This document shows, piece by piece, positions 18,539-50,113 of a stretch of 64,000 bases of DNA. Location of the stretch: the NCBI GenBank assembly GCA_910576925.1, contig CAJTKB010000001.1, positions 41,803 to 105,802 of the forward strand. The letters run 5' to 3'. How positions within the stretch are numbered: position 1 is the stretch's first letter; every line of letters begins with the position of its first letter. Source of the DNA: an uncultured Bacilli bacterium. Lineage in GTDB: Bacteria; Bacillota_I; Bacilli_A; RF39; UBA660. The notes below the pieces were generated by a model that ran no database searches, was not told where the DNA came from, and saw nothing but the letters and a program-made list of their open reading frames with translations. The translations under genes and the position numbers were made by a program.

Positions 18539-19238
18539 ATGTTCCTTTCGCTTTATTATTTACAAGACGTCCTTCTTTTAAAGTGATTACTTGTTTTTTT
18601 AATTTATTTACTATTTCTTTATCATGCGTTACTACCAAAACAGTTGTTCCCCATTCTTCATTTATTTTTTCTATTATTTTCATAACTTCCATACTCATTT
18701 CTGGATCTAGGTTTCCTGTTGGTTCATCACATATAAGCATCTTAGGGTTATTAACGATAGCTCTTGCTATTGCAACACGTTGTTGTTCTCCTCCTGATAA
18801 TTGATTTGGATAATTATGTATTTTACTCTTTAAACCAACTATTTCTAAGGACTTCAAAACCTTTACTCTTATTTCTTGTTTTTTAGCTCCTATTACTTCC
18901 ATTGCAAAAGCTACATTTTCATACACTGTAAGTTTTGGTAAAAGGCGGTAGTCTTGAAAAACAATTCCCAGTTTTCTTCTTAATTTATATACTTTACTAT
19001 TTCTTAGTTTGGCAACATTTATTCCACCTACTATTATTTGACCTGATGTTGGTTTTTCTTCTCGATATAGTAGTTTCATTAAAGTACTTTTACCGCTTCC
19101 TGAACCTCCAATTATGAAGACGAATGACCCTTTTTCTATATTTAAATTCAAATCGTACAATGCTGTTGTACCATTTTTGTATTGTTTTTTGACATTTTTG
19201 AGTCTTATTATATCCACTTCTATCATCCACCTTAACAT
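18519..19238 (-). CDS. ftsE: Cell division ATP-binding protein FtsE
   Basis: GGSGSGKST Walker A, LSGGEQQRVAIARA ABC signature. Confidence 0.9.
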   Translation of the reverse strand: MLRWMIEVDIIRLKNVKKQYKNGTTALYDLNLNIEKGSFVFIIGGSGSGKSTLMKLLYREEKPTSGQIIVGGINVAKLRNSKVYKLRRKLGIVFQDYRLLPKLTVYENVAFAMEVIGAKKQEIRVKVLKSLEIVGLKSKIHNYPNQLSGGEQQRVAIARAIVNNPKMLICDEPTGNLDPEMSMEVMKIIEKINEEWGTTVLVVTHDKEIVNKLKKQVITLKEGRLVNNKAKGTYDNENT

Positions 19239-19297
19239 AATTAGTATAGCATATATTTAGGCATAAAAAAAGACAATTATCGTCAAAATTATTGCCT

Positions 19298-20170
19298 TTA
19301 TTTGCCACCTTTCACTTCATAGGCATTGTTTACTAAATAAAATACTTGTGGGTCTAATAATTTTATACTTTCTGTTATTTCAAAGTATTCGCTTGTTGGA
19401 ATAACCGTTAAAATCATTTGACGTTTTTGATTTAAAAATCCTCCTTTAACATTAAATATTGTTGCTGAGTGTTTCATATCATTAAATAGAAAATCTTTAA
19501 TGGTTTGCTCTTTCGATGTAAATATGTATATAGCTTTGCTTTTAGAACTTCCTAATATTATCTTATCTACGATAAGGCTGTTTATATATAATATTATTAT
19601 GGCATACATTATCATATTAGTTCCAAAGAAGTAACTTCCTATTAATATTATAATAACATTTATTATAAAGTTTGTTTTTCCTATTGGAATACCATATTCT
19701 TCAAAGAGTATTTGACTAATTATTGGAAGTCCTCCATTTGAAAAGCCTGTTTTATAAATCATTCCATTAGCAAGTCCTCCAATAACACCTATAAATATTG
19801 ATATGACTAATAAGTCTGTTAGATCTATATAAATATATTTAGTTAAGTAACTAGTTAACTCTACTAATATCGGATAGGCGAAAGTTGCTATTAATGTTCC
19901 TAGAGTACGTTTTTTGCCTAGATAAATATAGCTTAATACCAACATAATTAGAGAAACAACAAAGATTGTTATTGACGGATTAATACCATTTAAGTATTTA
20001 TTTATAACAGCAAGTCCATTTACTCCACCTGTTACTATTTTAGTTGGTTGGAGTAATAGATTATATAAGAGCGCTGATACAAATAATGCTATTAACATTA
20101 TTATATATCTTGATAAAAGTGTCTGATTTGACTTTTGTATTACTTTTTCTTTAATTGTTTTATCTTCCAT
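19298..20170 (-). CDS. YitT family membrane protein (DUF161/DUF2179)
   Basis: TGGVNGLAVI motif and C-terminal DUF2179-like region. Paralog of the next gene. Confidence 0.7.
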   Translation of the reverse strand: MEDKTIKEKVIQKSNQTLLSRYIIMLIALFVSALLYNLLLQPTKIVTGGVNGLAVINKYLNGINPSITIFVVSLIMLVLSYIYLGKKRTLGTLIATFAYPILVELTSYLTKYIYIDLTDLLVISIFIGVIGGLANGMIYKTGFSNGGLPIISQILFEEYGIPIGKTNFIINVIIILIGSYFFGTNMIMYAIIILYINSLIVDKIILGSSKSKAIYIFTSKEQTIKDFLFNDMKHSATIFNVKGGFLNQKRQMILTVIPTSEYFEITESIKLLDPQVFYLVNNAYEVKGGK

Positions 20171-21042
20171 TAAGCACCTCCAACCACTTCATAGGCATCG
20201 GTTACAACGAAAAATGCATTTTTATCTATTTCATTTATTCCTTCTTTTAGACGGTAATATTCTTTAGTTGGTAAAACACACATTAGAACAGTTTCTTTTT
20301 TGCTTTTAAATCCTCCTTCTGCACTTAATACTGTTACACTATGATGTAATTCATCAATGATATAATCTCTAATTTGTTGCTCCTTTTTAGTTATGATATA
20401 GAAAGCTTTAGAATCCGATATTCCTAATATTACTCGATCTGTTATATAACTTAATATATATAGTAGGACAATCGCATACATTATTTTATTAAGGCCAAAT
20501 ACCAACCCACTTAGAATTATTATTAGACCATCACTGAAATACATAGCATTTCCAATACTTATTTTACAGTATTTTGAGATTATTTGATTAACAATATCAG
20601 TTCCGCCTGTTGAAAATCCCGCCTTAAATACTAGTCCTGAACCAAATCCTTGAATTACTCCTGCAAAAATAGCTGATAGGAGTAGTACTGAAGTATCTAG
20701 GTTTAAGACATCATTTATATTTTGAGTCAGTTTTATGAAAAGGGGAAAAAGAAGACTTCCTAAAGCTGAATGTATTGTTTTTTCTTTTCCTAAAGCAAAA
20801 TAACTAATTATTAAAAGAAGAACATCTATTACTGCGACAAATAATGATTGATCTATATTAAATAGATAATTGATTATTATAGAAGTTCCACTTACTCCTC
20901 CAGCTACTAGTTCATTTGGTGAACAAAATAAGTTAAAGGAAATAGCTGATAAAAGTACTCCTATTATTAGTTGTAAGTATCTTTTGAATTTTCCCTTTTG
21001 ATATATGTCATGTAATATATTTTCTTTATTTTTTTCTATCAT
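20170..21042 (-). CDS. YitT family membrane protein (paralog)
   Basis: AGGVSGTSII. Same architecture as 19298..20170. Start overlaps the stop of the upstream gene. Confidence 0.7.
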   Translation of the reverse strand: MIEKNKENILHDIYQKGKFKRYLQLIIGVLLSAISFNLFCSPNELVAGGVSGTSIIINYLFNIDQSLFVAVIDVLLLIISYFALGKEKTIHSALGSLLFPLFIKLTQNINDVLNLDTSVLLLSAIFAGVIQGFGSGLVFKAGFSTGGTDIVNQIISKYCKISIGNAMYFSDGLIIILSGLVFGLNKIMYAIVLLYILSYITDRVILGISDSKAFYIITKKEQQIRDYIIDELHHSVTVLSAEGGFKSKKETVLMCVLPTKEYYRLKEGINEIDKNAFFVVTDAYEVVGGA

Positions 21043-22130
21043 ATTTCATTTGCTCCTTTAAGTATCCATCGATAAATAAGTCTATATATCCGTCTAAAAC
21101 TTTTGAAACATTAGAAGTTTCGATATTCGTTCTATGATCTTTCACTAGTGAATATGGATGCATTACATAACTTCTGATTTGTGAGCCAAATTCTATATTT
21201 TTAGTTTCTCCTTTTATATGACTCATTTCTTTTTCTCTTTTCTCCTCTTCTAATATTTGAAGTTTTATTTTTAACACTCTTAAAGCTTCTTCTTTATTTT
21301 GAATTTGACTTCTTTCATTTTGACAAGTAACAACAGTCTTAGTTGGTAAATGAGTAATTCTTACAGCAGAATCTGTTGTATTTACTCCTTGCCCTCCACA
21401 ACCTGATGAGCGGTAAACATCTATTTTAAGATCTGTTTCTTGAATTTCTATACTTATATCATTGTCTATTTCTGGCGTTAATTCAACTGATGCAAAGGAG
21501 GTATGTCTTTTATTATTTGCATCAAATGGTGATAGTCTAACTAAGCGATGTACTCCTTTTTCACATTTTAAATAGCCATATGCATTTTCTCCTGATACTT
21601 CAATAGAACAACTTTTTATACCAGTTTCATCGCCTTCTTGATAATCTAATATTTTAATTTTATAACCTTTTTTTTCACACCATCTACAGTACATTCTATA
21701 AAGCATCATTGCCCAATCACAGGCTTCTGTTCCTCCTGCACCACTATGAATTTCTAATATGCAATTTTTATTATCATACTTTCCACTTAGTAAGAGAAGT
21801 TTTTCTAATTCTTCTATTTTTTCAGTTATTTTATCTATATCTTCTTCAATACTTTTTAATATTTCATTATCATCAAGTTCTAATAATTCAATATTAGTAT
21901 CTATATCATTTTTTGTTTTTTCTAGTGGAAGTACTATATTTTTTAACGAAGATATATCAGCAAAGATTTTTTTAGAAAGTTTCTCGTCACTCCAAAAGTT
22001 ATCAGCTTGAGTTTGTTCTTCTAATTTTCTTATTTTCTCTTTTTTATTTTCAACGTCAAAGAGTCCTCCATAAGTCATTTATTTTATCTTTTTGTTTATT
22101 TAGTTCTCTTTTTAATTCATTTATATCCAT
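21026..22130 (-). CDS. prfB: Peptide chain release factor 2 (programmed +1 frameshift)
   Basis: GGQ motif and SPF tripeptide (RF2-specific). ORF1 from the ATG at 22130 (MDINELKRELNKQKDKINDLWRTL*) ends at an in-frame TGA. The main ORF continues in the +1 frame. Confidence 0.85.
22055..22061 (-). promoter_or_regulatory. prfB: RF2 autoregulatory +1 frameshift site CTT TGA C
   Basis: Minus-strand sequence ...ACT CTT TGA CGT.... This is the classical frameshift motif. Confidence 0.7.
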
Positions 22131-22267
22131 TTTATCCCAACTTTCTAATCTTATTATACACATTGTTTTTTCATTTTAAACATTTTTATGTATATTTTTT
22201 TATTCTTTACATATTATATTAGTGAGGAAGGTTCACTATGTAGTGTGAAGATCCTCTGTATATAGAT

Positions 22268-22291
22268 TGGAGCATATATGCTCCTTTTTTT
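22268..22291 (+). terminator. Palindromic hairpin plus T-run (possible terminator at island left border)
   Basis: GGAGCATATATGCTCC followed by TTTTTTT. Confidence 0.35.
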
Positions 22292-22321
22292 GTTTCAATT
22301 ATATTGATAAATTTATATATT

Positions 22322-23362
22322 TTAATTTAATTTTTCAAGACAATGTATATATTCTACTGTTGTATTTTTTAAATATGTTCTTTTTTTATCTGCTTTGAAT
22401 CTTTTATGCTCTTTTTCATATAATTTGTATCTTCCGTATTTTGACATTATATTTTTTATTTCTTCTAATGGTATTATACCCTCGTCATTATAACTTAGTA
22501 GAATATATTTAAAATCTGCTTTTTCTATTATTTCTTCTAAGGCTTTAGTAGCTTCTTTTTTTATGCAATATTTGGATTTTTTATTTTCTTCTTTTCTTAT
22601 TCCTGTTTTACCTTTTATTTCTGGATTATCATATAGTGCTATTGTTTCTAACATATGATAATTTGTATCATACTTTCTAGTATTGTATGGTGGATCCATA
22701 TATAAAATATCACCTTTTATTTTTTTTATTAAGTTGTTACTATCTTCATTATATACTTCTAATTTTTTGCACTTTTTATTAATTATTACTTCTACAGGTT
22801 TTAATTCTAAATTATTACAAGCAGATTTTTTCATTTTTTTTAGAAAAGCTTCGTATACAGAAGCAGTATTAGCAACTTTATCAGCTGATTCTATTAAACT
22901 TGATATTAAGAAATTATATTCTGTTTCATTAATCATTTTTTCTTTTTTCCAAACTTCTATTTGTACTCTTATAGCATCTATTTTTTGGGCATTTTCTGCA
23001 CTAAAGTATTGTCTTTCAAATTCGTTTCCTGCTGTTCCTTCTAATGAGTAGTTCTTATATATAAATCCTTTTTTATTTCTAATTTTATTTAAGTATTCGA
23101 ATGGTTCTATATCATTTTCTTTTAATATTCTAAATTCTAATGTTTCATTGTTTTTTATAAAATGTTTTGCTGTTATGTAACTGTAATATTGAATATCATT
23201 AGAAATGATACTATAGCCTTTCTTTTTGAAGTATTTACCAACTGCACTTGTTCCTGCGAAAATATCACAAAATACAATATTATTTGACTCTGGTTTTATA
23301 AAGTCTTCTATTGTATCATCTATATATTGAAGTATTGAAGTTTTTGATCCTATATAGTTCAT
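22322..23362 (-). CDS. D12-class (Dam-like) N6-adenine DNA methyltransferase
   Basis: N-terminal YIGSK (Dam WAGGK-like), motif I DIFAGTSAVG, motif IV DPPY. 346 aa. Confidence 0.8.
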   Translation of the reverse strand: MNYIGSKTSILQYIDDTIEDFIKPESNNIVFCDIFAGTSAVGKYFKKKGYSIISNDIQYYSYITAKHFIKNNETLEFRILKENDIEPFEYLNKIRNKKGFIYKNYSLEGTAGNEFERQYFSAENAQKIDAIRVQIEVWKKEKMINETEYNFLISSLIESADKVANTASVYEAFLKKMKKSACNNLELKPVEVIINKKCKKLEVYNEDSNNLIKKIKGDILYMDPPYNTRKYDTNYHMLETIALYDNPEIKGKTGIRKEENKKSKYCIKKEATKALEEIIEKADFKYILLSYNDEGIIPLEEIKNIMSKYGRYKLYEKEHKRFKADKKRTYLKNTTVEYIHCLEKLN

Positions 23363-23452
23363 ATTAAGCCTCCTCTTTTATTATAACATAATATGTATTG
23401 GTATAATTTGTAATATTTATATATAAAGCGTTTTATGTTATAATTTCATAAG

Positions 23453-24265
23453 GTGATTGTAGTGAAGAAAAAGAAGATTAATGATATCGACATGAAAAAT
23501 TGGAAAAATTATGATGATATTATTACAGATAGTCTTTGGATTATAGATAAGAGAGATAATTCAGGTAATCATTTGGGTGACTATCATGGGAATTTCATAC
23601 CACAAATACCTAATCAATTAATGAAGAGATATACTAAAGAAGATGATTGGGTTTTAGATGCTTTTGCTGGTAGTGGCACTACTTTAATAGAATGTCGAAA
23701 ACTTAATAGAAATGGAATTGGGATAGATATAGATAAGGATATTTTAGAGGTTGCTAAGGAAAGATCAACTACAGAGATCGGTACTTCTGAACTAGAATTT
23801 ATTAATGCTGATAGTGCAGTTGTTGATTTGAATAATATTTTGGTTAAAAATAAAATCGATAAAGTTCAGTTAATAATATATCATCCACCTTATTGGGATA
23901 TAATAAAATTTAATGATTTAAAAGGAAATTTAGCTAATCTTAGTACTCTTGATGAGTTTTTGGATGGTTTTTCTAAAGTTATTGATAATACTGCTAAGTA
24001 TTTAGAGCGTGATAGATATCTTGCAATTGTGATTGGTGATATTTATAAAAAAGGCAAATGGATACCTCTTAATTCGTATATTACGCAACTAATGTTAGCT
24101 AAGAATTTTTTATTAAAGTCTGTAGTTGTTAAAAATGTTTCTGAAACTAAAGCTAAACAAAATAATAAATCTATATGGAGATATAGGTCTTTGCTTGGCG
24201 GCTTTTATGTATTTAGTCATGAATATATTTTAATTTTTCAAAAAACGAAAAAGACAAATATTTAA
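23453..24265 (+). CDS. Putative SAM-dependent DNA (N6-adenine/N4-cytosine) methyltransferase
   Basis: DAFAGSGTTLIECRKLNRNGIGIDID (PF01555-type motif I) followed by HPPY (motif IV-like). 270 aa. Likely GTG start at 23462. Confidence 0.55.
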   Translation: MIVVKKKKINDIDMKNWKNYDDIITDSLWIIDKRDNSGNHLGDYHGNFIPQIPNQLMKRYTKEDDWVLDAFAGSGTTLIECRKLNRNGIGIDIDKDILEVAKERSTTEIGTSELEFINADSAVVDLNNILVKNKIDKVQLIIYHPPYWDIIKFNDLKGNLANLSTLDEFLDGFSKVIDNTAKYLERDRYLAIVIGDIYKKGKWIPLNSYITQLMLAKNFLLKSVVVKNVSETKAKQNNKSIWRYRSLLGGFYVFSHEYILIFQKTKKTNI

Positions 24266-24290
24266 AAATTTATTGAACTACAATAAATTT

Positions 24291-24533
24291 TTATTTGTCT
24301 TCTTTTAAGTGTTTTCTAAACTCAAGTGGATCATACCAAAAGCAACCTATACAACCCTGAGAACTTCCATCGTGATTTTCATCTCCACTATAAAATGACA
24401 TAGGATAACCTAATTTTGTAGCATCAAACCTTTTGTTTGTTCTTCTGCATTCTTTACAAATTTGCCTTTTGGCATCATTTGCTGCTTTACTTAATGGTTG
24501 AAAGTCCTCTAATTTTTGAGTTCTAATATCCAT
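24291..24533 (-). CDS. Small Cys-rich (CxxC...CxxC) protein, hypothetical
   Basis: 80 aa. CKEC...CIGC suggests a zinc ribbon. Last gene of the three-gene operon. Confidence 0.4.
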   Translation of the reverse strand: MDIRTQKLEDFQPLSKAANDAKRQICKECRRTNKRFDATKLGYPMSFYSGDENHDGSSQGCIGCFWYDPLEFRKHLKEDK

Positions 24534-24586
24534 TGCAGTATCATTTTTCCAGCCATTTTTATGATCTACCTCTGGTTTTGAAGTAT

Positions 24587-24910
24587 TTAGTATAACACAT
24601 CTTTTATTTTTGTAGTAGTTTTTATATCTGTTCTTATTACTTGACTTCCTATTCTGTCTTCTTCTTTTTTTAATCCATTTAGTCTGATTCTATCAATACC
24701 TCTAGATCTTTTATCAAATTCTATATAATAGTATTTGGCAATTGTTGACTCTTTTCTACACCAATCTGCTCCATTTTTAAACATCAAACTAGCATATTCA
24801 TTAACAAATTCTGATTTTGATACCCATCTACTTTTTCCTTCATCATCAGGTTGTGCTAATTCAATAAATAAGTAGGGCTTGGTTCCTATTTTAAATTTTG
24901 GTTGATTCAC
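24587..24910 (-). CDS. Hypothetical protein, translationally coupled to the upstream nuclease-like gene
   Basis: The GTG start overlaps the TAG stop of the upstream gene (TAGTGA). RBS GGAGG sits 8 nt upstream. Confidence 0.45.
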   Translation of the reverse strand: MNQPKFKIGTKPYLFIELAQPDDEGKSRWVSKSEFVNEYASLMFKNGADWCRKESTIAKYYYIEFDKRSRGIDRIRLNGLKKEEDRIGSQVIRTDIKTTTKIKDVLY

Positions 24911-26025
24911 TATTTTTCCTCCTCAAAGATAATTTCTTTATTTTCTTCTTTAAATGATATATATCTAATGGTTTCTATTTTATACTGTTTTTCTATCCTA
25001 ATAGTATAGTTTTTTATGTCTTGATACATTTTTTTATTTTTTTTATTAGGAGTAGGGGCAATTATTGTAGGATGTATGACTACTAATTTGTTATAAGTAG
25101 GAACTATATAATCTTTAATCCAGTTAACATACTTTAACAACTGATTTTTTATAGATTCTTTAGGTTGTTCATCTTTTAATTCACAAACAATAATATCAGT
25201 TCTTTCGTCATTTTCTTGTATAAGGCAAATATCTATACTTTGCATTCCAACTCCACAAGAAACTTCATTTCCAATCCAAGTTATTTTATCATCCGTTACT
25301 TTTAACGCATCTATATTTGAAATATTTTGTAAAATATATGCTTGCATATGAGCCTCATAAGCTAGTTTTATGTTTTTTTTGTAAATTAACCTATTTTTTA
25401 TATTTAAGGATTCCTTTTTACCTTTATAGGTTTCTGAGTTATTAGATGTAACTATTTTGTTTTCAGCTATGTCATAATTATAGTTATTTCCTATTAGTTT
25501 TTTATAATTATTTTTATGTCTAATTTTATTCATTATTTTATCATATTCATAATCTGTTATCATAGTGCATCCTCTATTACCCTTTAGTTTTCTATATATA
25601 AGGCTCCAGCACATTTCGCTTGGATGTTTTATATTATCTAATGAGTCTAGGCACTCTCTTTCTGTAATTCCTTGTTCATATACTTCATCAGGAGTAAACA
25701 TAACTCTAAAAGTTAGATTTTTATTCAATTCATAGTTTAAATACTTGTCGTTGCATAGAAAAGGAGCTTCTATTGCCTTAAAACTTGCAAAAAACATTCC
25801 ATCATGATCTTGTGTTTTTTGTAAGTAAAATAATATATTATCATTTTTTTTAATTCTAGATATATCGGCTATCATTTCAGTTAATTGTCTTTCTACTATT
25901 CCTTCTATTTTGATATCGTTATTTATTAAGTAATTACAATCATATTTTTTTGCTCCTGTACCAGCAAATTTATATTGCAAGTGGATTGATAATGTTCTTC
26001 CGTCAACGATAAAAACATGAGCCAT
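24910..26025 (-). CDS. PD-(D/E)xK nuclease-like protein (candidate restriction/defense endonuclease)
   Basis: C-terminal IDICLIQENDERTDIIVCELKDEQ fits the D...E-x-K nuclease motif. Likely start is the ATG at 26025 (MAHVFIVDG, RBS AGGTGA); the track start at 26079 uses TTG. Confidence 0.5.
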   Translation of the reverse strand: MAHVFIVDGRTLSIHLQYKFAGTGAKKYDCNYLINNDIKIEGIVERQLTEMIADISRIKKNDNILFYLQKTQDHDGMFFASFKAIEAPFLCNDKYLNYELNKNLTFRVMFTPDEVYEQGITERECLDSLDNIKHPSEMCWSLIYRKLKGNRGCTMITDYEYDKIMNKIRHKNNYKKLIGNNYNYDIAENKIVTSNNSETYKGKKESLNIKNRLIYKKNIKLAYEAHMQAYILQNISNIDALKVTDDKITWIGNEVSCGVGMQSIDICLIQENDERTDIIVCELKDEQPKESIKNQLLKYVNWIKDYIVPTYNKLVVIHPTIIAPTPNKKNKKMYQDIKNYTIRIEKQYKIETIRYISFKEENKEIIFEEEK

Positions 26026-26585
26026 TTTATCACCTACTTCATTGAAGAATATTTTATCATAATTTTTATCTATATACAATTTTAATTTTTCTTCCCTTAT
26101 TATTAAGTGTAAACAGTATCAAAACTTTTGAATGTAATTTTCTGCTTCTTGTAAAATCCGTTAAATTTATTCTGCTTTTTATTAAGTTGTCACTATTTAT
26201 TTTTCTTCTTAACTATTCTATACTATATATCAAATACTTCATTATTAACTCTTTATTCTAATATTATTCTATCAAAAAAAGATAGACATTTAAAACTATC
26301 TTTATAAAAAGTCTCATAGGTATCAATGCCTTTAATTAATGATATTGCATATTTATGGCCTTTAAGCTACTTCCCACAGCATTGCTTACATTTCTTACCA
26401 TTTTCATACTCTTCTGATCTTAAGTATATATAGTATTTGTAAATATTTTTAAATAAAATTTACATTTATTCGCTAAACTGATTATATCGTATTTTATTTT
26501 TCTTAAATTCTTTTTATTCAATTAATACTTATCCATACCAGATTGATAGGAAACTCGAACTTTTCGAGTAGTAATAGAAAACGAC

Positions 26586-26614
26586 TTGTCAAAAAGTCGT
26601 TTTTATGATATTAT
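26586..26614 (+). promoter_or_regulatory. Strong sigma-A-type promoter (TTGTCA, 17-nt spacer, TGaTATTAT) driving an antisense transcript
   Basis: TTGTCA at 26586-91, extended -10 at 26606-14. Embedded in the palindrome ACGACTTGTCAAAAAGTCGT. Confidence 0.5.
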
Positions 26615-26704
26615 GCATATAGATGAAGAATTCTTCATACAATAAAAAGGGAATACTTAACCTTTCCTTGTTTGAGTGTTCACCAGAATGTGGTTAGCAC
26701 TTAA

Positions 26705-26830
26705 TCTACGAAAGTAAATTGAGTGCTTTTGTCTTATTATAGATTACTATATTACCAAAGTAAAAAGTAAGGCTATGAGTAAGAAGATAATTAGAATAAG
26801 TGATAAGATTAAAAAATCTTTCTTATGCAT
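26705..26830 (-). CDS. 41-aa hydrophobic peptide (candidate type I toxin, Fst/TxpA-like)
   Basis: MHKKDFLILSLILIIFLLIALLFNFGNIVIYNKTKALNLLS. RBS AAAGGAGG 8 nt upstream. The 5'UTR can pair the SD with an upstream GCCTACTTT segment. Confidence 0.45.
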
Positions 26831-26892
26831 ATCATCAGCCTCCTTTCATTTGAAAGTAGGCAAACACTCAACGATTAAATATTCCTAAAATA

Positions 26893-26921
26893 ATTATACA
26901 AAACAAATGTTTTTATTACAA
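26893..26921 (-). promoter_or_regulatory. Promoter for the small-peptide mRNA (TTGTAA, 17 nt, TATAAT)
   Basis: Minus-strand TTGTAA (26916-21) and TATAAT (26893-98) give a leader of about 56 nt. Confidence 0.4.
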
Positions 26922-27003
26922 TAAATTTATACTAAGTTATGACAATTTAGTAAAACACACTTGCATATTGACAATATCAATATGTATATATGGAGATATT
27001 TAA

Positions 27004-27489
27004 ATGAATAATACTATTAAAGGTACAAGTTGTTATGCAAATGCTAAATCAGGAAATCTCGTTTCAATAACAGGTGACGGTGGAAATGCTTGGGGATTTT
27101 ATGGACAATCATATAAAAAGTTAGCACCAAGTCTAAAATTATATGAATACTGGCGTGATAATCCTGATCATTTAAGTGATATGGAATTAATTGAATATTA
27201 TGTACAACAATACTATAATCATCGTTTAATAAATTTAAATGTTGAAGAACTTTTTAATATTTTAAGAAACAAATTTGGAGAAGAAATTATTCTTTTATGC
27301 CATGAATTACCAAGCGAATCACCAATGATGGATAAAAAACATTTTTGTCATAGAAGATTAGATGTAGATTATTTTGAACTTGAAACTGGAATAATCATTC
27401 CTGAAATAGGTATTGATGAAAGTGGTATTATAACTTATTATGAACAACCAAATTATAAAACTATTTTAAAAAAAGTTATGAAAAAATAA
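27004..27489 (+). CDS. DUF488-family (YeaO-like) protein
   Basis: LAPSLKL and ILLCHE...HFCHRRL fit the DUF488 LLCxE...CHR signature as I recall it. 161 aa. Confidence 0.5.
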   Translation: MNNTIKGTSCYANAKSGNLVSITGDGGNAWGFYGQSYKKLAPSLKLYEYWRDNPDHLSDMELIEYYVQQYYNHRLINLNVEELFNILRNKFGEEIILLCHELPSESPMMDKKHFCHRRLDVDYFELETGIIIPEIGIDESGIITYYEQPNYKTILKKVMKK

Positions 27490-27770
27490 TATTTTATATA
27501 GCAAAAGTTGTTATACCTCATCCTTTAGGGTACATATAGATAGCATAATCATACCTTTTCCCTTTTTAACATCTACACTTAATAAGGCTTCATTAATTAC
27601 TCATTTCTTGATTACAGGCTTCTGTTTCTATCATTATTTTATCAAGCTTGTTATATTCTAAGACCATTTAATTTGTGTTCTCACTTATACTCTTGATAAA
27701 TAATTTAACCTGAAAAATAAGATATAAATATTAAATTATTTACATCTAAAGTATACTTGTAATCTATCTT

Positions 27771-28658
27771 TCAAAATAATGCTATTTGTTCATTGTTTTT
27801 TATTTCTTTTTTATACGCACTAATAATATCTTTCATATTATATAATATTCCATATTTATCGCATTCATCAGTAAATATTTTGTATAAGTACTTATGATTA
27901 GGCACAGTACAATAATATTTATTCCCATAATATTCAATATACTTTTGTTTCAAGCCTTTAAAATTTCTGTCTAACACTTCAAAATAGTAATCTCTTTGAT
28001 TATCTCTTAAAGTCATTCCCATATAAGTATGAATAAATCTTGCACCATATTGGCTTGCTAGTCTCACTAATTCCTTTATATCTTCTTCTTTATCAGTAAT
28101 AAATGGCAAAATAGGATTCAACATAATACCTGCAAATATTCCGTTCTTACTTAATTCACTAATTGCTTTAAATCTATTTGAAGAAGCACATACATTAGGC
28201 TCTATTATTTTAGATAAATCATCATTTGATGTTGTTATAGTAAATTTAACAATGACATCATTTTTAGCATTTATTTTTTTTAATAAATCTATATCTCTCA
28301 AAATTAAATCACTTTTTGTGTCAATAGAAACTCCATATCCATATTTTGAAAATAGTTTTAATGCACTTCTAGTCTGTTCATATTTTATTTCTAATGGATT
28401 ATAAGTATCTGACATTGATCCAATACCTACAACACCTTTTTCTCGTTTTCTTGATAATTCTTGTTCTAAAATTTGAAGTGCATTTTCTTTTCCTTTAACA
28501 AGATCAAAATTTTCTATATGATAGCAATTACTTCTGCTATCACAATAAATACATTTATGAGAGCATCCTCTGTATAAATTGATATTATAATTAACACCAT
28601 ACCATTCAGATCCGTCTTTTACTTTTGTAAGCATTGTTTTTGCTTTTATGTATTCCAT
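27771..28658 (-). CDS. Radical SAM protein, SplB-like (spore photoproduct lyase / DNA repair photolyase COG1533 family)
   Basis: YRGCSHKCIYCDSRS CxxxCxxC cluster in the COG1533-type context. 295 aa. Confidence 0.7.
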   Translation of the reverse strand: MEYIKAKTMLTKVKDGSEWYGVNYNINLYRGCSHKCIYCDSRSNCYHIENFDLVKGKENALQILEQELSRKREKGVVGIGSMSDTYNPLEIKYEQTRSALKLFSKYGYGVSIDTKSDLILRDIDLLKKINAKNDVIVKFTITTSNDDLSKIIEPNVCASSNRFKAISELSKNGIFAGIMLNPILPFITDKEEDIKELVRLASQYGARFIHTYMGMTLRDNQRDYYFEVLDRNFKGLKQKYIEYYGNKYYCTVPNHKYLYKIFTDECDKYGILYNMKDIISAYKKEIKNNEQIALF

Positions 28659-28661
28659 TTT

Positions 28662-29408
28662 TTACTCCTTTATCAATTTTTCAAATGAACTTGCATTTAA
28701 TATTGTATTTGAAATAAATTTTCCTTTATAAAAATTAGCCCAATTATTAAATATGCAAGGAGCATTTTTTGCTTTATCTAAAGTATCTATTTTTATAAAG
28801 TTAATTTTAATATTATTATCTTTTGCATATTCAGTTAGTTCTTTTACTTCATATTCAACATAAGGACATTCTGGACTATAATAAATCGTAAATTCATCAT
28901 TATCAATTTTCATATTTCTAGCATTATCATTAAATTTAGGTGTTTCATTATCATCAAATTGTAATGCCAATAATTCATAATCCCCTATACTATCTACAAC
29001 TTTAAATCCATAGTGCTCAAAAAATTTCTTTTCTCCAATAAATGGTTTTTTCTTTTTAGAAGTTAAAGTACACATTCCACTCATACCTTTTTCTTTAGAG
29101 TCATTGATAGCATACTCTAACAATTCTTTTGCAATACCTTTTCCTTTAAAACTTCCTGCTACCCATAGACAGTAAATATATTCATAATTCTTACCACTAA
29201 TAGGAATCCAGGCAGTTTCTATTGGCTCATATTCAATGAATGTTTTTCCTCTTGCATTTAATTTTCTAAATACATGACCATTTTTTAATTTTCCTTTTAT
29301 CCATTCTTTCTTTTTATCTACTCCATATTGATGTTTAGGATCACCAATAGCACAGCATATATGCTCATCATCTATGTTTTCTAATGTTAAATTTATATAT
29401 TCATTCAT
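28662..29408 (-). CDS. GNAT acetyltransferase with C-terminal YoaP-like domain
   Basis: N-terminal GNAT (WVAGSFKGKGIAKELLEYAI) plus an approximately 110-aa C-terminal extension of YoaP type. 3-nt gap to the radical SAM gene. Confidence 0.6.
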   Translation of the reverse strand: MNEYINLTLENIDDEHICCAIGDPKHQYGVDKKKEWIKGKLKNGHVFRKLNARGKTFIEYEPIETAWIPISGKNYEYIYCLWVAGSFKGKGIAKELLEYAINDSKEKGMSGMCTLTSKKKKPFIGEKKFFEHYGFKVVDSIGDYELLALQFDDNETPKFNDNARNMKIDNDEFTIYYSPECPYVEYEVKELTEYAKDNNIKINFIKIDTLDKAKNAPCIFNNWANFYKGKFISNTILNASSFEKLIKE

Positions 29409-29441
29409 TTTACTTTACTCCTTAATAAATTAAAATTTAAA

Positions 29442-30030
29442 TTACTATTTCCTCTTAATTGGATGTCTTATAACAGTCTTTAATTTGCTTACATCACATT
29501 TTCTTGGGTCACTTAAATATATTTCATGATGATATCTTGTATCTGTTATATCTAATTCGTATCATTGATCCATAACAAATTTGTGCATATCCTCAACTGT
29601 TGCTGGTTCATTATCATAGGAACCTATATGCATACATTGAACGCAAGCACCCTCATCATAAGTGAAAAATTCAACTTTTGAAAAATCTTGTTTCTTTTTT
29701 GCTTCAGAAATAGCCCAGTCAAAATCTTTTTTCGTTACAAAATCAGGTAATCTAATTATTGATATAAAGTTCATTGTTCCTTTATTATTATAATCAATAG
29801 TTCCTTTTATACCATCTTGCCACCAAAAGCCCTCTAACGGTGTACAACATATTCAAAGAAGCTATCAATTTTATATAGTAACCCTATTGTGTTTTGATAT
29901 TCTCTATTTTCTTCATTAGGATTTCATTTTCCTCTTACTGCAATATAATTCATTTTGGAACTTCAACTATACTAGATTTATTCTTCGGCAGATAAAACTC
30001 CTTATATTCTTTCTTATAATCAAATGCCAT
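29442..30030 (-). pseudogene. GyrI-like small-molecule-binding domain gene, disrupted (in-frame TGA plus frameshifts)
   Basis: MAFDYKKEYKEFYLPKNKSSIVEVPK...FISIIRLPDFVTKKDFDWAISEAKKK...EGACVQCMHIGSYDNEP. Stop at 29562-64 with the same frame continuing (YELDITDTRYHH). Several stops/frameshifts lie between 29780 and 29960. Confidence 0.6.
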
Positions 30031-30096
30031 ATTTTATCCCTCCCATCACTTGATACATAAATTATAGCAAACTTAATATGACAAAAGATTGTCATA

Positions 30097-30987
30097 TTAA
30101 AAATAATTATTTATACTTTTATTTAATATATCTATAATTTCCTTTTTCACAAAAGATGGCTCTAACACTTTTATATGCTCACCAAAAGAAAGAATATATC
30201 CATAAATCCAATCATTAAAAGGTAACTGGGCTTTTACTAGAAAGGTATTATCAATATCTGTTATTTCTGATTCATCAAATTCATCATAAACTCTATAGGC
30301 TAAACATTTATCAATTTGCAACACTAATTTTACCATCTTAGGTGGTTTATCATTTTTATCAAAATCAATATCCATAGTTCTTTCAAAGTTTTGACTTAAA
30401 GTTTTAAAATTTTTAATTCGCATCAACTTAAAAAAGCGATAATCATTTTTTTCTTGATCAAATCCACATAAATACCAAGAATTATATCTAAAATATAATT
30501 TTAAAGGTTCAACTTTTCTTTTTGTAGTCTTTCCATAAGAATTAAAATAAGAAAATTCGACAACCTGTTTATTTAAAATGGAATTTTTAATTAAATTAAA
30601 AACTTGATTATGTGTATCGGATTCACCCCAAACAGAAAAATCAACATCAAACCAGCTTTCTTCATCTTTAGAGAAAATATTTTTTAATTTTTCATAAATA
30701 TTATTATTATCAATTTGTAATTTATTCATTCCTTCTAATGAAAAGAGAATTTGATTTTGTTCTTCATTTGTTAATAGTGATTTATCAAATTTATAATCTT
30801 CTAATAAAAATATCCCACCATTTTTTCCTTTAGACATATATATTGGTATATTTAATTCACTTAACAGTTCTATATCCCTGTATATTGTTCTTGTTGATAC
30901 TTCAAAATATTCTGACAACTCTTTCGCAGTCATTGTTTTTTTAGAAAGTAATAAGTATATTATTCCAAATAAACGATTTTGTTTCAT
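30097..30987 (-). CDS. WYL-domain transcriptional regulator (YafY-like HTH plus WYL)
   Basis: MKQNRLFGIIYLLLSKKTMTAKELSEYFEVSTRTIYRDIELL HTH, then a WYL-type C-terminal region. The track start at 31005 is GTG; the ATG at 30987 is more likely. Confidence 0.7.
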   Translation of the reverse strand: MKQNRLFGIIYLLLSKKTMTAKELSEYFEVSTRTIYRDIELLSELNIPIYMSKGKNGGIFLLEDYKFDKSLLTNEEQNQILFSLEGMNKLQIDNNNIYEKLKNIFSKDEESWFDVDFSVWGESDTHNQVFNLIKNSILNKQVVEFSYFNSYGKTTKRKVEPLKLYFRYNSWYLCGFDQEKNDYRFFKLMRIKNFKTLSQNFERTMDIDFDKNDKPPKMVKLVLQIDKCLAYRVYDEFDESEITDIDNTFLVKAQLPFNDWIYGYILSFGEHIKVLEPSFVKKEIIDILNKSINNYF

Positions 30988-31130
30988 CTTACAGCTCACT
31001 TTCAAATAACTATTTATCTATTAGATACATTATATCAAAAAAAGAACATCTTTTATAGATGCTCTACTAAATAAATTGTAATTTACTATTATTATCTTCA
31101 ATAGTTTTAGTTATTTCATCTTCAGATAAC

Positions 31131-31337
31131 TTAACAAAATTCTGAACATCTAGTTACTATTGCTTTTGCATTAATTTTTTTTGTTCCTTTTTCCATAAAG
31201 TAAAGTATCTCATCTTTAAAAATTCTACTATGAGGTATTTTCCTTCCCACTGCACCTATTATAATCATTGTTTTACTACCATCTAAAATTTTTGATAATT
31301 CTTTTGATTTATCATCACAATATACTAAATGTACCAT
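31131..31337 (-). CDS. Hypothetical small protein (possibly a gene fragment)
   Basis: 68-aa ORF preceded by an AAATAGTAATTTG leader word. Confidence 0.3.
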   Translation of the reverse strand: MVHLVYCDDKSKELSKILDGSKTMIIIGAVGRKIPHSRIFKDEILYFMEKGTKKINAKAIVTRCSEFC

Positions 31338-31489
31338 AATTACATCCCCAATCTTTTAAACAAATTACTATTTGTCTATTATTTCTATTATATTAAAGTT
31401 GTGTTCAACTTAAGTTTAATAAAAGCTAATTTATAAAATTCAATATCTAGCACATATTGTCATTATTCAAGTTTTCTAACATGATATCG

Positions 31490-31855
31490 TTAATATATTA
31501 CCATTATTATCAAAAATAGCGAATTCGTCTTTTCCATAGAAAGTTTTGTGAATTTTTTTGCAATATAAACCTTATCCTTTAATTCTTCATATAGACCATT
31601 TACATCATCTACATTGATAAACAAAGTAAATGTTGGAATGATTTCAGCTTTTTTTAAAGTGGAATACTCTTCTAACAAATTGTTTTATTCCTGAAACATT
31701 ATAGAAATATTATCTTTGCATACTATAGAAAATTCTAATACCTCCCCATTTTCTGGAACACTTAAAACCTTTTGAAATCCTAATTTTTCTTCATAAAATT
31801 TTACTGTTTCTTTTACATTTTTCACCATAATATTAACTGTTATATTTTTATACAT
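31490..31855 (-). pseudogene. VOC/glyoxalase-bleomycin-resistance family gene with in-frame TAA
   Basis: MYKNITVNIMVKNVKETVKFYEEKLGFQKV...IMFQE*NNLLEEYSTLKKAEIIPTFTLFINVDDVNGLYEELKDK. The same frame continues after the stop. Confidence 0.55.
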
Positions 31856-31920
31856 ATTCTATCGCCTCCGAACTTAATTATATAATAAGAAAAATTATAT
31901 ATATTGTAAAAAACAGACAT

Positions 31921-32700
31921 TTACCTATATTTCTCTAATAGTTGTAATGGAGAAAAACCTGTGTACTTTTTTATTTCTTTTATGAAATGAGACTGATCAT
32001 AAAAACCACACATATTTGTAATATCAATTAAAGTCATTTCATTATCTATCAATAAAGTTAAACAGAAATGTAATCTTAAAATATTTAACATTACTTTAGG
32101 AGATACCCCATAATTTGCTTTAAATATTCTATAAAGTTTTCTTTCATGATAACCATAGTCTTTAGCAATCTTTACAGCATTTTGTTCTTGTGGACTTTCA
32201 TATAATTTATCTATTATTTTTATAGTTTGATTAAAAGAACTATTCTTAATTTTTTCTAATAAATAATCTCTAAAAATATTCAATCTCTCATTAACATTAA
32301 TAGTATTCAATATTTTTTCTAGATAACCATATTTATCGATTTCAAAAAAGGGTATAGGATGATCCATAATCTTATCAGTATTGACTCCAAATAAAATAGA
32401 AAAAGCACTAGGTTTTAATCTAACCCCCATAAAATCGGTTCTTTTATTTAATTCAAAAGGAACAGTATCTTTACTAAATCCTGCAAAACAAATAGTTCTA
32501 TTAGAAAAATTAACTACTATGTCAATACAAGCATCTGGAAGTATATAATTGTATATTGTTTTATTTAATATTTTTTGAGTTTGCATTATCGAAATGCACA
32601 TGCAATAATCATTTAATTCCTCAAATTGATATTCGGTATATATAATATTTTCATTAAATTCTTTATCTAATAAATATGGTATTTGTTTTGGATAATACAT
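31921..32700 (-). CDS. AraC-family transcriptional regulator
   Basis: C-terminal AraC HTH (HERKLYRIFKANYGVSPKVMLNILRLHFCLTLL...MCGFYDQSHFIKEIKKYTGFSP). Confidence 0.75.
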   Translation of the reverse strand: MYYPKQIPYLLDKEFNENIIYTEYQFEELNDYCMCISIMQTQKILNKTIYNYILPDACIDIVVNFSNRTICFAGFSKDTVPFELNKRTDFMGVRLKPSAFSILFGVNTDKIMDHPIPFFEIDKYGYLEKILNTINVNERLNIFRDYLLEKIKNSSFNQTIKIIDKLYESPQEQNAVKIAKDYGYHERKLYRIFKANYGVSPKVMLNILRLHFCLTLLIDNEMTLIDITNMCGFYDQSHFIKEIKKYTGFSPLQLLEKYR

Positions 32701-32734
32701 TTATTTCAACTAACTTTCATATTGTAATTTCTAG

Positions 32735-32938
32735 TTATACTCTATTGAAAATTATTGTTTTATCTTTTATTGATATTTTACCAACTTCATATCCAAATTC
32801 TTTTGCCTCTTTCTTATAATTCAAAAAGGAATGATCTATTTCAAATCCTATAATGTTTTTAATTTCTTCATAAGTTAATTTATAATTTTTTTTATTATTA
32901 TTTTTCAAATACTTCCATAATGTCTCATATTTGCTCAT
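32735..32938 (-). CDS. Small hypothetical protein (67 aa)
   Basis: MSKYETLWKYLKNN.... Has its own conserved leader. Confidence 0.4.
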   Translation of the reverse strand: MSKYETLWKYLKNNNKKNYKLTYEEIKNIIGFEIDHSFLNYKKEAKEFGYEVGKISIKDKTIIFNRV

Positions 32939-32964
32939 ACCTTAACACCTCTAAAACTTATAAT

Positions 32965-33132
32965 TCAATCTTCAATTTTAATAATAATATCGTACGCAGT
33001 AGAACATTCTTCTTTTGATAATTTTGTTTCTTTAACAAGATATTCTATTGCTTCATCTTTGTTAGAAAAATCTTTTAATTTTTTTTTTACTTTTTTAAAT
33101 TTCTCAATAACATCTTTAATTTTGTTATTCAT
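32965..33132 (-). CDS. Small hypothetical protein (55 aa)
   Basis: RBS GTGAGG, ATG at 33132 (MNNKIKDVIEKFKK...). Preceded by the conserved leader. Confidence 0.3.
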   Translation of the reverse strand: MNNKIKDVIEKFKKVKKKLKDFSNKDEAIEYLVKETKLSKEECSTAYDIIIKIED

Positions 33133-33266
33133 AATTTTACCTCACTTTCAAAGTGTAATTTGTAGTTATTTCCAATAACCTGACATTTCAAAATCTACAC
33201 AATTAAATTCTTTATTTCTTCAAAAGTGTGTTTTGCCATAATCTCACACTCCTAAATTGTAATTTA

Positions 33267-33842
33267 TCATTGTGATAGAACAATCAAGTCTTCTTTTTTA
33301 TACTTATTATGACCTTTTAGGCTTTTCTTATATTTCCAACATTTAATTGCTTCATCTAAACTTTTATCTTTATTACACTCGAAAAAATCTCTAATATAAG
33401 TGTTATATTCAAATTGTTTATCAATAGTAGTTTTATTTTTCTTTTTATCTTCTAGTATCTGATAATATGCTTGTATTGATTCTTGATAAGTTTTTCCTGC
33501 ATTATTTTTTAACCATTTTTGAAATAATACATTAAAAGAAAAACTATTTCCTATTTGTTCTTTATAAAACTTTCTATGCTTTTCGGAACAAACAAAATTG
33601 CTCTCTATTTTTGTATCAAGTGTGATAATATCAGGTATATTTGTTTTTGCTTTATTATGAGTTTTAAATGTCTTTTTTCCTGTTTCTAAAAATTCTATTA
33701 TTCTATCAGTTAATTCTTCTTTACTACCTGTTGCTTGTAAATTATTGTTTTTACAAAAACTTACTAATTCTTCTTTTAAATAATAAAACTCTTTAAAAAT
33801 TTTACTATCCAAATTTATATCTAATATAGGTCTTTCACTCAT
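33267..33842 (-). CDS. SAP-like / DUF6434-like protein
   Basis: MSERPILDINLDSKIFKEFYYLKEELVSFCKNNNLQATGSKEELTDRIIEFLETGK. The ATG at 33842 follows the GGAGTGAGG leader; the track start is GTG at 33854. Confidence 0.5.
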   Translation of the reverse strand: MSERPILDINLDSKIFKEFYYLKEELVSFCKNNNLQATGSKEELTDRIIEFLETGKKTFKTHNKAKTNIPDIITLDTKIESNFVCSEKHRKFYKEQIGNSFSFNVLFQKWLKNNAGKTYQESIQAYYQILEDKKKNKTTIDKQFEYNTYIRDFFECNKDKSLDEAIKCWKYKKSLKGHNKYKKEDLIVLSQ

Positions 33843-33848
33843 AATAAA

Positions 33849-33873
33849 CCTCACTCCTAAATTGCAATTTGTT
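33849..33873 (-). promoter_or_regulatory. Conserved leader motif AAATTGCAATTTAGGAGTGAGG (one of about ten related copies, 31.0-36.5 kb)
   Basis: Near-identical 20-25-nt elements abut the start codons of consecutive minus-strand genes at 33242-33267, 33140-33163, 35581-35603, 36444-36480, 34341-34380, 34661-34690, 32711-32734, 32941-32975 and 31006-31045. Each contains a TACAAT -10-like word plus the SD. Confidence 0.45.
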
Positions 33874-34207
33874 ATTTAATCGGAATGTAGATTTCAATAA
33901 TAGAATCTTCTTTATTCCTATGAAATCTATAATCATATCTTTCAAAATAAACAAATCGTCTGTTTTTTATTAAAATATTATTTCTTAATTTACTATTAAA
34001 TATTTTACGATAATTTTGTGATAATTTCACATTGTTACTTAATGACCTTGATAGTCATACCTTATTCCTATTACATTAAATTCTTCTAATTCTATTATTT
34101 GATAATCCATCTCTTTTACCTTTTAAATTTGTGTGTTGTTATAATTGTGTAACTATATGAGTTAATAGTTATTGTTATATTATCAATTTCACAATACCAA
34201 TTTTTAT

Positions 34208-50003: not shown

Positions 50004-50113
50004 CATTAGACTCTCTCCTTCCGCCATGATTAGTTACTAATCATAGTAATTTATAAACAACGTTATTATAACAACAATTTCCTTATTTGACAAGTGATAA
50101 TGTTTTATCTTGA

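Follow-up and report, generated by a model that had tools for sequence, protein, structure and literature searches.

A minus-strand open reading frame (ORF) for a short hydrophobic peptide, opposed by a convergent promoter on the other strand, lies in a 64,000-nucleotide stretch of DNA (hereafter the window) from an uncultured Bacilli bacterium (GenBank assembly GCA_910576925.1, contig CAJTKB010000001.1, positions 41,803 to 105,802). The question that this locus raises is whether it is a type I toxin-antitoxin (TA) module, as a preliminary description of the DNA had proposed, or whether its signals are of the kind that AT-rich DNA offers anyway. Type I TAs have been thought phylogenetically narrow, one reason being that their small size escapes annotation and their divergence defeats homology search (PMC12390103, PMC5367252). 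Taken on their own, the signals of the window are weak evidence: at a GC content of 25.6% they do not rise above chance (20 promoter-like sites were found against 13.1 +/- 3.4 expected), and a scan of the window for terminators by a fixed rule found none. The observation becomes significant because every element is conserved in about 115 homologous loci. Their comparison indicates that the module in the window is intact and belongs to a new, apparently abundant family of type I TAs in uncultured gut Bacilli, whose toxin and antitoxin functions we infer. The locus probably is what it appears to be, namely a peptide mRNA and a cis-encoded antisense RNA (asRNA) forming a module of the type I kind.

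A conserved module and its 27-residue peptide

Relatives were sought with a physico-chemical codon pattern (GGAGG, 5-10 nt, M-x-[KR]-[KR]-[DE]-hydrophobic x4-x-hydrophobic x5), calibrated beforehand on a viral collection and run on GTDB species-representative genomes. This gave at least 120 loci, and all family counts in this text are among the matches listed. They refer to 127 ORFs at pattern matches, 114 full-length loci, 117 aligned loci (alignment spanning -60..+275) and, in some tests of the asRNA or mRNA, 100 or 90 loci. Both strands of the window were inspected over 26300-27200.

The unit of homology is far larger than the peptide gene. When window positions 18000-34000 were compared by blastn with the 13 closest loci among the matches listed, similarity was confined to a module of about 450 bp (Table 1), and the flanks were unrelated. 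A blastn search with the segment from -120 to +300 aligned about 415 nt, five times the ORF length, at 66-87% identity in more than 100 loci, and an nhmmer profile of the family found one copy in the window (26530-26950, E = 3e-79). Altogether there are at least 162 module copies in the at least 120 loci of 8 kb, 31 of which hold 2-4 tandem copies. In one locus (L181, 1311-1546), a second, diverged copy, 70.6% identical to that of the window and about 1 kb from the first, was missed by the peptide pattern, so the pattern-based census undercounts the family.

Read from the ATG at 26830, the minus-strand ORF runs from ATG CAT AAG AAA GAT to GTA ATA TAG and encodes 27 amino acids (MHKKDFLILSLILIIFLLIALLFTLVI). 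The preliminary description had given it 41 (26705-26830), which does not hold since the frame stops at 26749-26747. The polar tail it reported (NFGNIVIYNKTKALNLLS) stems from a one-base slip after codon 23, positions 26705-26830 translating to ...FTLVI-stop-stop-SIIRQ... What stands of its description of the peptide is the charged N-terminus (MxKKD) and a stretch of helix length, 22 consecutive hydrophobic residues, from which a single membrane-spanning helix with the N-terminus inside can be inferred. About 80 of the 127 ORFs at pattern matches are exactly 27 amino acids long (consensus MNKKDFLILSLVIIIFLLLFLLFIVLI), as are 75 of those in the 114 full-length loci, and the closest relatives of the window copy among the matches listed (L226 and L230) differ from it by one residue. 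Subclasses of 22 and 24 amino acids end in FK or YK. No PXXXG motif occurs in any of the 114 peptides (0/114), and only 4/114 contain proline. None of eight representative family peptides was present in a collection of 15 billion proteins, and Pfam and NCBIfam searches with the peptide gave no significant match, the best being HokA (E = 0.12, 12 bits against a cut-off of 89).

Because the search pattern could itself impose conservation on the N-terminal half, the coding test used codons 16-27, which are free of its constraint. Entropy at codon positions 1, 2 and 3 is 0.99, 0.41 and 1.05, a pattern that is the NTN signature expected of a hydrophobic helix. Indel positions per column are scarcer in the ORF (0.023) than in the 5' untranslated region (UTR; 0.061) or the 3' UTR (0.137). 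The 75 ORFs of fixed length end in three different stop codons (TAA 51, TAG 18, TGA 6), and Leu17, Leu18, Leu21 and Leu22 are kept in 68-74 of these 75 sequences (about 97%) while using 5-6 codons (TTA, TTG, CTT, CTA, CTC, CTG), two-step TTA/CTT changes included. The position-2 constraint, the fixed ORF length, the scarcity of indels and the synonymous Leu codons make the case that the predicted ORF is under coding selection. Conservation of the ORF, on which the preliminary description had staked its proposal, thus extends to more than 110 related loci with a coding signature.

Two predicted convergent RNAs and a long-distance helix

The signals reported earlier around the ORF stand up well, and are listed in Table 1. 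For the toxin-mRNA promoter we place the transcription start at about 26886/26885. Across the family its -10 TATAAT and the TTG of its -35 are conserved, a 17-nt spacer recurs in 100/114 loci, and sites matching at 10/12 or better occur in 29/114 loci against 4/114 shuffles. The convergent plus-strand promoter, with its extended TG, is likewise conserved in position and strand. Its -35 sits in the loop of a perfect 10-bp palindrome (26578-26587/26594-26603), the extended TG is present in 95/114 loci and the 17-nt spacer in 100/114, and matches of at least 10/12 are found in 57/114 loci, a level that shuffles reach in 10/114 and the toxin strand of that region in 8/114. Its position clusters at +192..+213 from the ATG.

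From this promoter and the hairpin with T-run that had been noted downstream of it, an asRNA can be predicted, with its start placed 7 nt past the -10. Hairpin and U-run are present on the antisense strand in 113/114 loci vs 37/114 on the toxin strand, and the predicted length (median 115 nt, range 83-142) agrees with the roughly 115 nt originally estimated. In the window, a 121-nt plus-strand RNA folds with z = -4.36 relative to shuffles. The first 20 or so nucleotides form a 5' stem-loop in 91/100 loci (median free energy -5.0 vs 0.0 in shuffles), with stems that covary, e.g. AUGAAGGAAACUUCAU and AUGUCAAGGAAACUUGCAU. In most loci 1-25 nt separate the toxin stop codon from the end of the terminator stem downstream of it; in the window the terminator ends about 10 nt short of the stop. 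The predicted asRNA is therefore complementary to the toxin 3' UTR only; the overlap with the toxin 3' region claimed earlier holds for the UTR and not for the coding sequence, which follows from the ORF ending at 26747. The core of the asRNA resembles the toxin 5' UTR, of which it is a near-copy. Sequence inspection revealed no conserved ORF in the asRNA; a plus-strand 24-codon ORF starting at 26624 was considered and rejected, having no Shine-Dalgarno (SD) sequence and no conservation in the family consensus. Rfam returned nothing relevant in 25500-28000 at E <= 10, nor in the whole window at gathering thresholds.

Translation of the toxin mRNA appears to be locked locally. As the preliminary description had it, the SD sequence AAAGGAGG (26839-26846), 8 nt upstream of the ATG, is matched by an anti-SD in the 5' UTR: GCCTACTTTCA (26851-26861) pairs with TGAAAGGAGGC (26838-26848) over 11 nt at 91% complementarity. 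Across the family the unpaired probability of the SD is 0.33 vs 0.47 with a shuffled upstream arm (lower in 86/117 loci; p = 2e-10). The hairpin aligns poorly across the family, and the anti-SD solution differs by subfamily. In a subclass of 24-25 amino acids (MTKKDFLIFALIVIIILLILLLFK; L163, L165, L175, L189, L197, L157, L220, L224 and others), with peptides ending in FK or YK, the lock is CCUCC-GAAA-GGAGG, which replaces the longer, imperfect hairpin of the window. Subfamilies thus differ in how the SD is sequestered yet retain a second, long-distance helix.

This helix, which the preliminary description had missed, is the most striking structural feature of the module. The putative 317-nt mRNA of the window has a minimum free energy (MFE) of -83.9 kcal/mol (z = -6.85 vs shuffles), and in its MFE fold the first 24 or so nucleotides base-pair with a segment of the 3' UTR some 205 nt further downstream, forming a helix of 24 bp beside the SD hairpin. 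When the MFE helices of the window were projected onto the columns of the 117-locus alignment and pairs were counted, with shuffles (n=500) as controls, the four segments of the long-distance helix had 82-97% of cells paired, with compensatory changes (pair types CG62/UA25/UG12; UA72/CG21/UG9; UA67/UG28/CG13; UG54/UA40/CG15). The 3' hairpin, i.e. the asRNA terminator hairpin as it also forms within the toxin 3' UTR, was paired in 82% of cells (CG74/UA32; UA57/CG19/UG18). All five whole-structure measures exceeded 500/500 shuffles, and 73.5% of cells were paired vs 34-49% after sliding the partners by 1-3 columns. RNAalifold run on the 117-sequence alignment, whose columns are gappy, returned no pairs. 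In the long-distance helix G.U pairs outnumber A.C by 3.4x (10.2% vs 3.0%), and this excess argues that the helix is selected in the toxin-strand RNA. For the 3' hairpin there is no strand bias (G.U 4.1%, A.C 5.7%), as expected if it works on both strands. Since the covarying 3' arm lies beyond that hairpin, the toxin mRNA must read through it.

In the full-length mRNAs the SD has a median unpaired probability of 0.16, the AUG one of 0.14 and the first six nucleotides one of 0.04. Folding and covariation together show an mRNA that would be made in a closed form, with 5' end, SD and AUG largely base-paired. The predicted pairings further show that binding of the asRNA and the 5'-3' helix would be mutually exclusive, the 3' arm lying inside the asRNA-complementary region. 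When the asRNA target was masked in silico in 90 loci, the 5' end was freed (0.04 to 0.55, p = 5e-15); the SD (0.16 to 0.20) and the AUG (0.14 to 0.19) both stayed closed.

Table 1. Features of the module and of its neighbourhood, in window coordinates
Feature	Position	Strand	Basis or detail
D12-class adenine methylase	22322-23362	-	Restriction-modification cluster beside prfA
N4/N6 methylase	23453-24265	+	Restriction-modification cluster
IceA/NlaIII-like endonuclease, two ORFs	24291-24533 and 24587-24910		Pfam ICEA positions 127-200 and 2-96
389-aa ORF	24910-26079		No Pfam domain
Whole conserved module (homology unit with relatives)	26537..26986	-	blastn, nhmmer
Second distal hairpin, module border	26544..26569	-	ACTCGAAAAGTTCGAGT + UUUCCUAUC; sequence reading; stem 26553-26569, then UUUCC
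Probable toxin-mRNA terminator in this copy	26569..26603	-	10-bp palindrome 26578-26603 + UUUUCUAUU; overlaps asRNA -35; dG ~-7
Candidate asRNA promoter	26586..26614	+	-35 TTGTCA (26586-26591), 17-nt spacer, extended -10 TGaTATTAT (26606-26614); 10/12
Predicted antitoxin asRNA, ~115 nt	26621..26738	+	Promoter + terminator
asRNA 5' stem-loop	26624..26639	+	AUGAAGAAUUCUUCAU; fold, family
Long-distance interaction, 3' arm (toxin 3' UTR, inside asRNA-complementary region)	26650..26681	-	MFE fold, covariation
Predicted asRNA intrinsic terminator	26696..26738	+	Hairpin 26696-26727 (arms 26696-26709/26714-26727) + U-run 26728-26738 (TTTTGTCTTATT); dG -14 kcal/mol
Putative toxin ORF, 27 aa	26747..26830	-	MHKKDFLILSLILIIFLLIALLFTLVI + TAG stop (26747-26749); translation, family conservation
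SD-sequestering hairpin	26838..26861	-	Anti-SD GCCUACUUUC / GAAAGGAGGC, SD GGAGG 26839-26843; fold, family test
Long-distance interaction, 5' arm (from mRNA nt 1-2)	26862..26885	-	MFE fold, covariation
Candidate toxin-mRNA promoter	26893..26921	-	-35 TTGTAA (26916-26921), 17-nt spacer, -10 TATAAT (26893-26898); 10/12

Competing readings, known systems and a possible mechanism

The central proposal of the preliminary description, a type I TA, is supported in silico by the ORF, the promoters, the terminator, the SD lock, the tandem copies and the unrelated contexts. The locus has, as far as prediction goes, what is generic to such systems: a small (<60 amino acids) hydrophobic coding peptide, an asRNA gene with its own promoter and terminator, and an occluded ribosome-binding site. 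A number of observations weigh against this reading. Promoter-like hexamers are frequent in DNA of 25% GC. Folding of the window copy closes the SD only moderately (unpaired probability 0.28) and leaves the AUG mostly open (0.73). The 3' end of the toxin mRNA is not a conserved feature, a distal terminator comparable to that of the window occurring in only 27/114 loci. The conserved U-run that follows the 3' arm was considered as the toxin terminator, but just 51/114 loci, the window not among them, have a local hairpin before it. The crude pN/pS of 0.46 does not discriminate, being not clearly different from that of a +1-frame control (0.52), and is not relied on. The peptide lacks the polar or charged C-terminal tail that is common among characterised type I toxins, its last six positions being uncharged in 63/114. 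All hosts are uncultured metagenome-assembled genomes (MAGs). Finally, plasmids, phages and viral contigs yielded no member of the family, so a role in stabilising mobile elements is not directly supported. Here, a DNA search of plasmid and phage collections gave only one spurious 46-nt match; translated peptide searches of plasmids and phages gave none, with a low-complexity filter that may mask such a peptide; and strict patterns had 0 matches in the viral collection. A loose pattern without the acidic residue gave 113 matches on viral contigs, which were discarded as signal peptides of long proteins or unrelated short ORFs.

Several of these points would also suit an ordinary, non-toxic small membrane protein (for example an accessory or regulatory subunit) whose expression a cis-antisense RNA adjusts, with no toxin module involved: the missing polar tail and PXXXG motif, the lack of matches to Pfam or NCBIfam toxins, and the failure to find the family on plasmids or phages. 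We regard this as unlikely. Housekeeping small proteins retain synteny, whereas the present module is sharply bounded and has unrelated flanks even in its closest relatives. It also comes in 2-4 tandem copies in 31 of the at least 120 loci and often abuts the 3' ends of tRNA or transfer-messenger RNA (tmRNA) genes, and a triple lock on 5' end, SD and AUG, combined with a dedicated asRNA, is the hallmark of a product that is to be kept off.

It is less probable still that the plus-strand RNA is the main product, either as a trans-acting small RNA or as the leader of the plus-strand gene at 27004, with the peptide mRNA secondary. The RNA does have the classic build of a small RNA (strong promoter, 5' stem-loop, single-stranded A-rich stretch, intrinsic terminator), and in the window a plus-strand gene follows about 270 nt past its terminator. 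Yet the downstream gene differs in every relative, and the loci with the closest homolog of the 161-residue protein encoded there have no module. Moreover, the minus-strand ORF and its 5' UTR, which lie outside the cover of the asRNA, are conserved as much as the asRNA region, and the 5' UTR covaries with the asRNA-complementary segment, tying both RNAs into one system. About equally improbable is a non-coding repeat or mobile sequence (similar to a miniature inverted-repeat transposable element, or an integration-site remnant by tRNA genes) with ORF, promoters and hairpins incidental in AT-rich DNA, which would suit the multi-copy, context-independent and sharply bounded module, its frequent tRNA/tmRNA adjacency and the abundance of chance hexamers, but not the 27-codon length fixed in 75/114 loci with three stop codons in use and invariant Leu specified by up to six codons, the avoidance of the ORF by indels, the compensatory changes and G.U asymmetry that indicate selection on RNA of a defined strand, or the lack of flanking terminal inverted repeats.

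If the locus is read as a type I TA, by sequence comparison the family belongs to none that has been described. The preliminary description had likened its lock to those of Fst, TxpA and BsrG; SD sequestration is indeed found, but by no sequence criterion is the peptide Fst, TxpA or BsrG. The layout is the Gram-positive one for type I systems, with convergent promoters and the asRNA on the 3' side (T1TAdb, PMC8594479). It is shared with par (Fst/RNA II, Enterococcus faecalis pAD1) and the Fst/Ldr superfamily including SprA1/SprA1as, where, as here, the asRNA overlap leaves out the ORF (PMC8594479). Also shared are a peptide with a charged K/D start followed by a hydrophobic helix, and multiple chromosomal copies. 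In par, an intramolecular 5' stem-loop (5'-SL) sequesters the SD and an upstream helix (5'-UH) the extreme 5' end of the toxin mRNA (PMC7472228). Functional analogues of both are present in the new family, with the difference that its 5'-end helix, of 24 bp, has the asRNA target itself as partner, in the distal 3' UTR. Fst/Ldr toxins have PXXXG in the transmembrane helix and a charged C-terminal tail (PMC7472228), both lacking here, and there is no match to Fst in Pfam or NCBIfam or to RNA II in Rfam. RNA II is about 40 nt long (PMC7472228), compared with about 115 nt for the predicted asRNA. The bidirectional terminator shared by the two par RNAs is absent, the hairpin of the new family terminating the antisense strand only; the distal palindrome of the window was considered as a family-wide bidirectional terminator and rejected, with its presence in only 27/114 loci. 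A second site of the DRa/DRb type at the translation initiation region is not supported in the window, where pairing of the asRNA with the toxin 5' region has z = -0.49 (family median z = -1.54; 36/100 loci below -2; no conserved motif identified).

The closed mRNA recalls a different group. In hok/Sok (plasmid R1) and aapA/IsoA (Helicobacter pylori), the full-length mRNA is closed by a conserved, covarying 5'-3' interaction together with local SD-sequestering hairpins (PMC6733600). The 3' arm carries an anti-SD, 3' trimming activates the mRNA, and the antisense RNA overlaps the 5' part or the ORF (PMC6733600, PMC8594479). The new family shares the 5'-3' lock and the multiple chromosomal copies. 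It differs in that its SD is closed by a local hairpin, its asRNA is encoded opposite the 3' arm and covers the 3' UTR only, its hosts are Bacillota of the Gram-positive type, and there is no sequence similarity (the HokA score given above, against 89 bits). With txpA/RatA, bsrG/SR4, bsrE/SR5 and yonT/SR6 of Bacillus subtilis it shares convergent genes and an asRNA of about 100-200 nt on the 3' part of the toxin mRNA. In that group the duplex, once formed, is degraded in an RNase III-dependent manner while structure occludes the SD, a mode of action expected here as well; the toxins have 38-59 amino acids and polar C-termini, and are borne on prophages or the skin element. The new peptides, in contrast, have 27 residues, were not found in phage or viral collections and show no sequence similarity. 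The overlap extends into the ORF in the txpA/bsrG-type families (PMC8594479), whereas in the new family it stops about 10 nt after the stop codon. The Ibs and ShoB peptides of enterobacteria are alike in being very short, hydrophobic, tailless and multi-copy, but differ in asRNA arrangement and phylum and have no sequence similarity. Both have fewer than 30 residues and are almost wholly hydrophobic, without a polar tail and with multi-copy loci. Sib covers the ibs ORF completely, and OhsC runs divergently without overlap (PMC8594479).

The predicted regulatory architecture is thus the standard Gram-positive layout plus a 5'-3' lock similar to that of hok/AapA. We know of no description of this combination, a lock of the hok/AapA type with a 3'-overlapping asRNA of the Gram-positive type. 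For the mechanism, we propose that a sigma-A-type promoter (26921-26893) would give a toxin mRNA of about 250-320 nt and the extended -10 promoter (26586-26614) the asRNA of about 115 nt. The asRNA would pair with the toxin 3' UTR, probably starting from complementary hairpin loops, and the resulting duplex of about 90-115 bp would be a substrate for RNase III. As this duplex and the 5'-3' helix exclude each other, its formation would also release the protected mRNA 5' end, exposing it to 5'-dependent decay, and the local SD hairpin would hold translation off throughout. Were the asRNA lost, the stable closed mRNA would persist and eventually be translated, and the peptide could then insert into the membrane and cause growth arrest or cell death. 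The decay steps are inferred by analogy with the Bacillus 3'-overlapping systems and the 5'-UH of par (PMC8594479, PMC7472228). A bolder version, which we put forward only tentatively, is that the antitoxin acts by strand displacement and not by ribosome block: the asRNA would compete with the toxin 5' UTR for the 3' arm, converting a closed, nuclease-resistant mRNA into a form with an open 5' end that is destroyed while its SD hairpin remains shut.

With at least 162 copies in at least 120 species-level genomes of low-GC gut Bacilli, the family would close a gap in a lineage that has hardly any experimental genetics. The alignment of about 115 loci, with its rich covariation, provides a structural model of both RNAs and a testable mechanism (asRNA vs mRNA 5' end), and a 27-residue peptide consisting of nearly nothing but Leu, Ile and Phe offers a minimal model for membrane-active toxins. 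The pattern and alignment could seed an Rfam or NCBIfam entry and thereby improve MAG annotation, and the adjacency to tRNA and tmRNA genes may help to mark island boundaries.

Genomic setting and hosts

In the window, the module lies between a decayed restriction-modification cluster (Table 1) and a gene for a 161-residue protein of unknown function (27004-27489). The splitting of the IceA/NlaIII-like endonuclease into two ORFs suggests a frameshifted pseudogene. An accessory island, as the locus had been labelled, is true in the loose sense that the module adjoins this cluster; the module itself is an autonomous unit of about 450 bp. The 161-residue protein belongs to a large unannotated family (797 homologs, mostly from MAGs of Bacilli and Bacillota, a few tagged PF22751), and exact look-ups of this protein and of the 389-residue flanking protein gave no match. 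In relatives 80% identical to it (L001-L010), its gene follows an overlapping 103-residue ORF and is itself followed by genes for an ABC transporter and an HD-domain protein; the window has it on its own, immediately after the module. The 80%-identical homolog is in another context that has no module, so the module is not linked to its neighbours.

About 15 of 60 relatives (L125, L130, L133, L154, L158, L163, L165, L166, L172, L184, L189, L213, L219, L230 and L240) have a tRNA or tmRNA gene at the distal module end, convergent with the toxin gene and with its 3' end 233-292 nt from the ATG. The abutting gene varies (Leu, Arg, Met, Ala, Thr or tmRNA) and lies behind a conserved hairpin, ACTCGAAAGTTCGAGT + TTTCCTATCAATC; in many relatives the distal hairpin and ...CTATCAATCTGGTG precede it. 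There is no tRNA gene in the window, and positions 26540-26573 retain the junction sequence (...CTATCAATCTGGTA), which points to a junction that was rearranged or is a remnant, or to an integration hot-spot. The position against tRNA and tmRNA 3' ends may reflect the guarding of integration hot-spots or islands in the reduced genomes of gut Bacilli.

Nearly all hosts are gut MAGs, similar in kind to the organism of the window. They carry the labels uncultured Bacilli, Tenericutes, Mollicutes, Mycoplasma sp., Erysipelotrichaceae, or Candidatus Coprosoma, Faecenecus or Onthousia, and come from rabbit, ruminant (goat, deer), chicken, mouse and human samples. Five loci (L133, L136, L137, L148 and L155) are on contigs of MAGs labelled uncultured Muribaculaceae (Bacteroidota) and carry a Bacilli-like module (e.g. 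MHKKDFLILSLIIIIFLLIGLLFTLVK in L133); these may be mis-binned contigs or cases of horizontal transfer. The TGA stop codons seen in 6 of the 75 ORFs of 27 residues include some in MAGs labelled Tenericutes, Mollicutes and Mycoplasma, which suggests that those organisms use genetic code 11 and not code 4. One copy (L228, ORF at reverse-strand position 5070) has a 20-nt internal tandem duplication (TCTTATCTTCTTATTAGTAT) in the ORF, which by frameshift gives a 24-residue variant, and is probably decaying.

Elsewhere in the window, two plus-strand hydrophobic ORFs of 26 and 27 residues (8634-8714 and 54213-54296), with weak SD-like motifs, lie antisense within minus-strand ORFs (8561-12493 and 53563-54399); they do not resemble the family and have probably arisen by chance in the AT-rich antisense sequence. 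The sole Rfam family in the 64 kb is the L31-Firmicutes ribosomal-protein leader RF03156 at 50015-50046 on the minus strand (35.1 bits vs a gathering threshold of 33.3), a match consistent with a Bacillota host.

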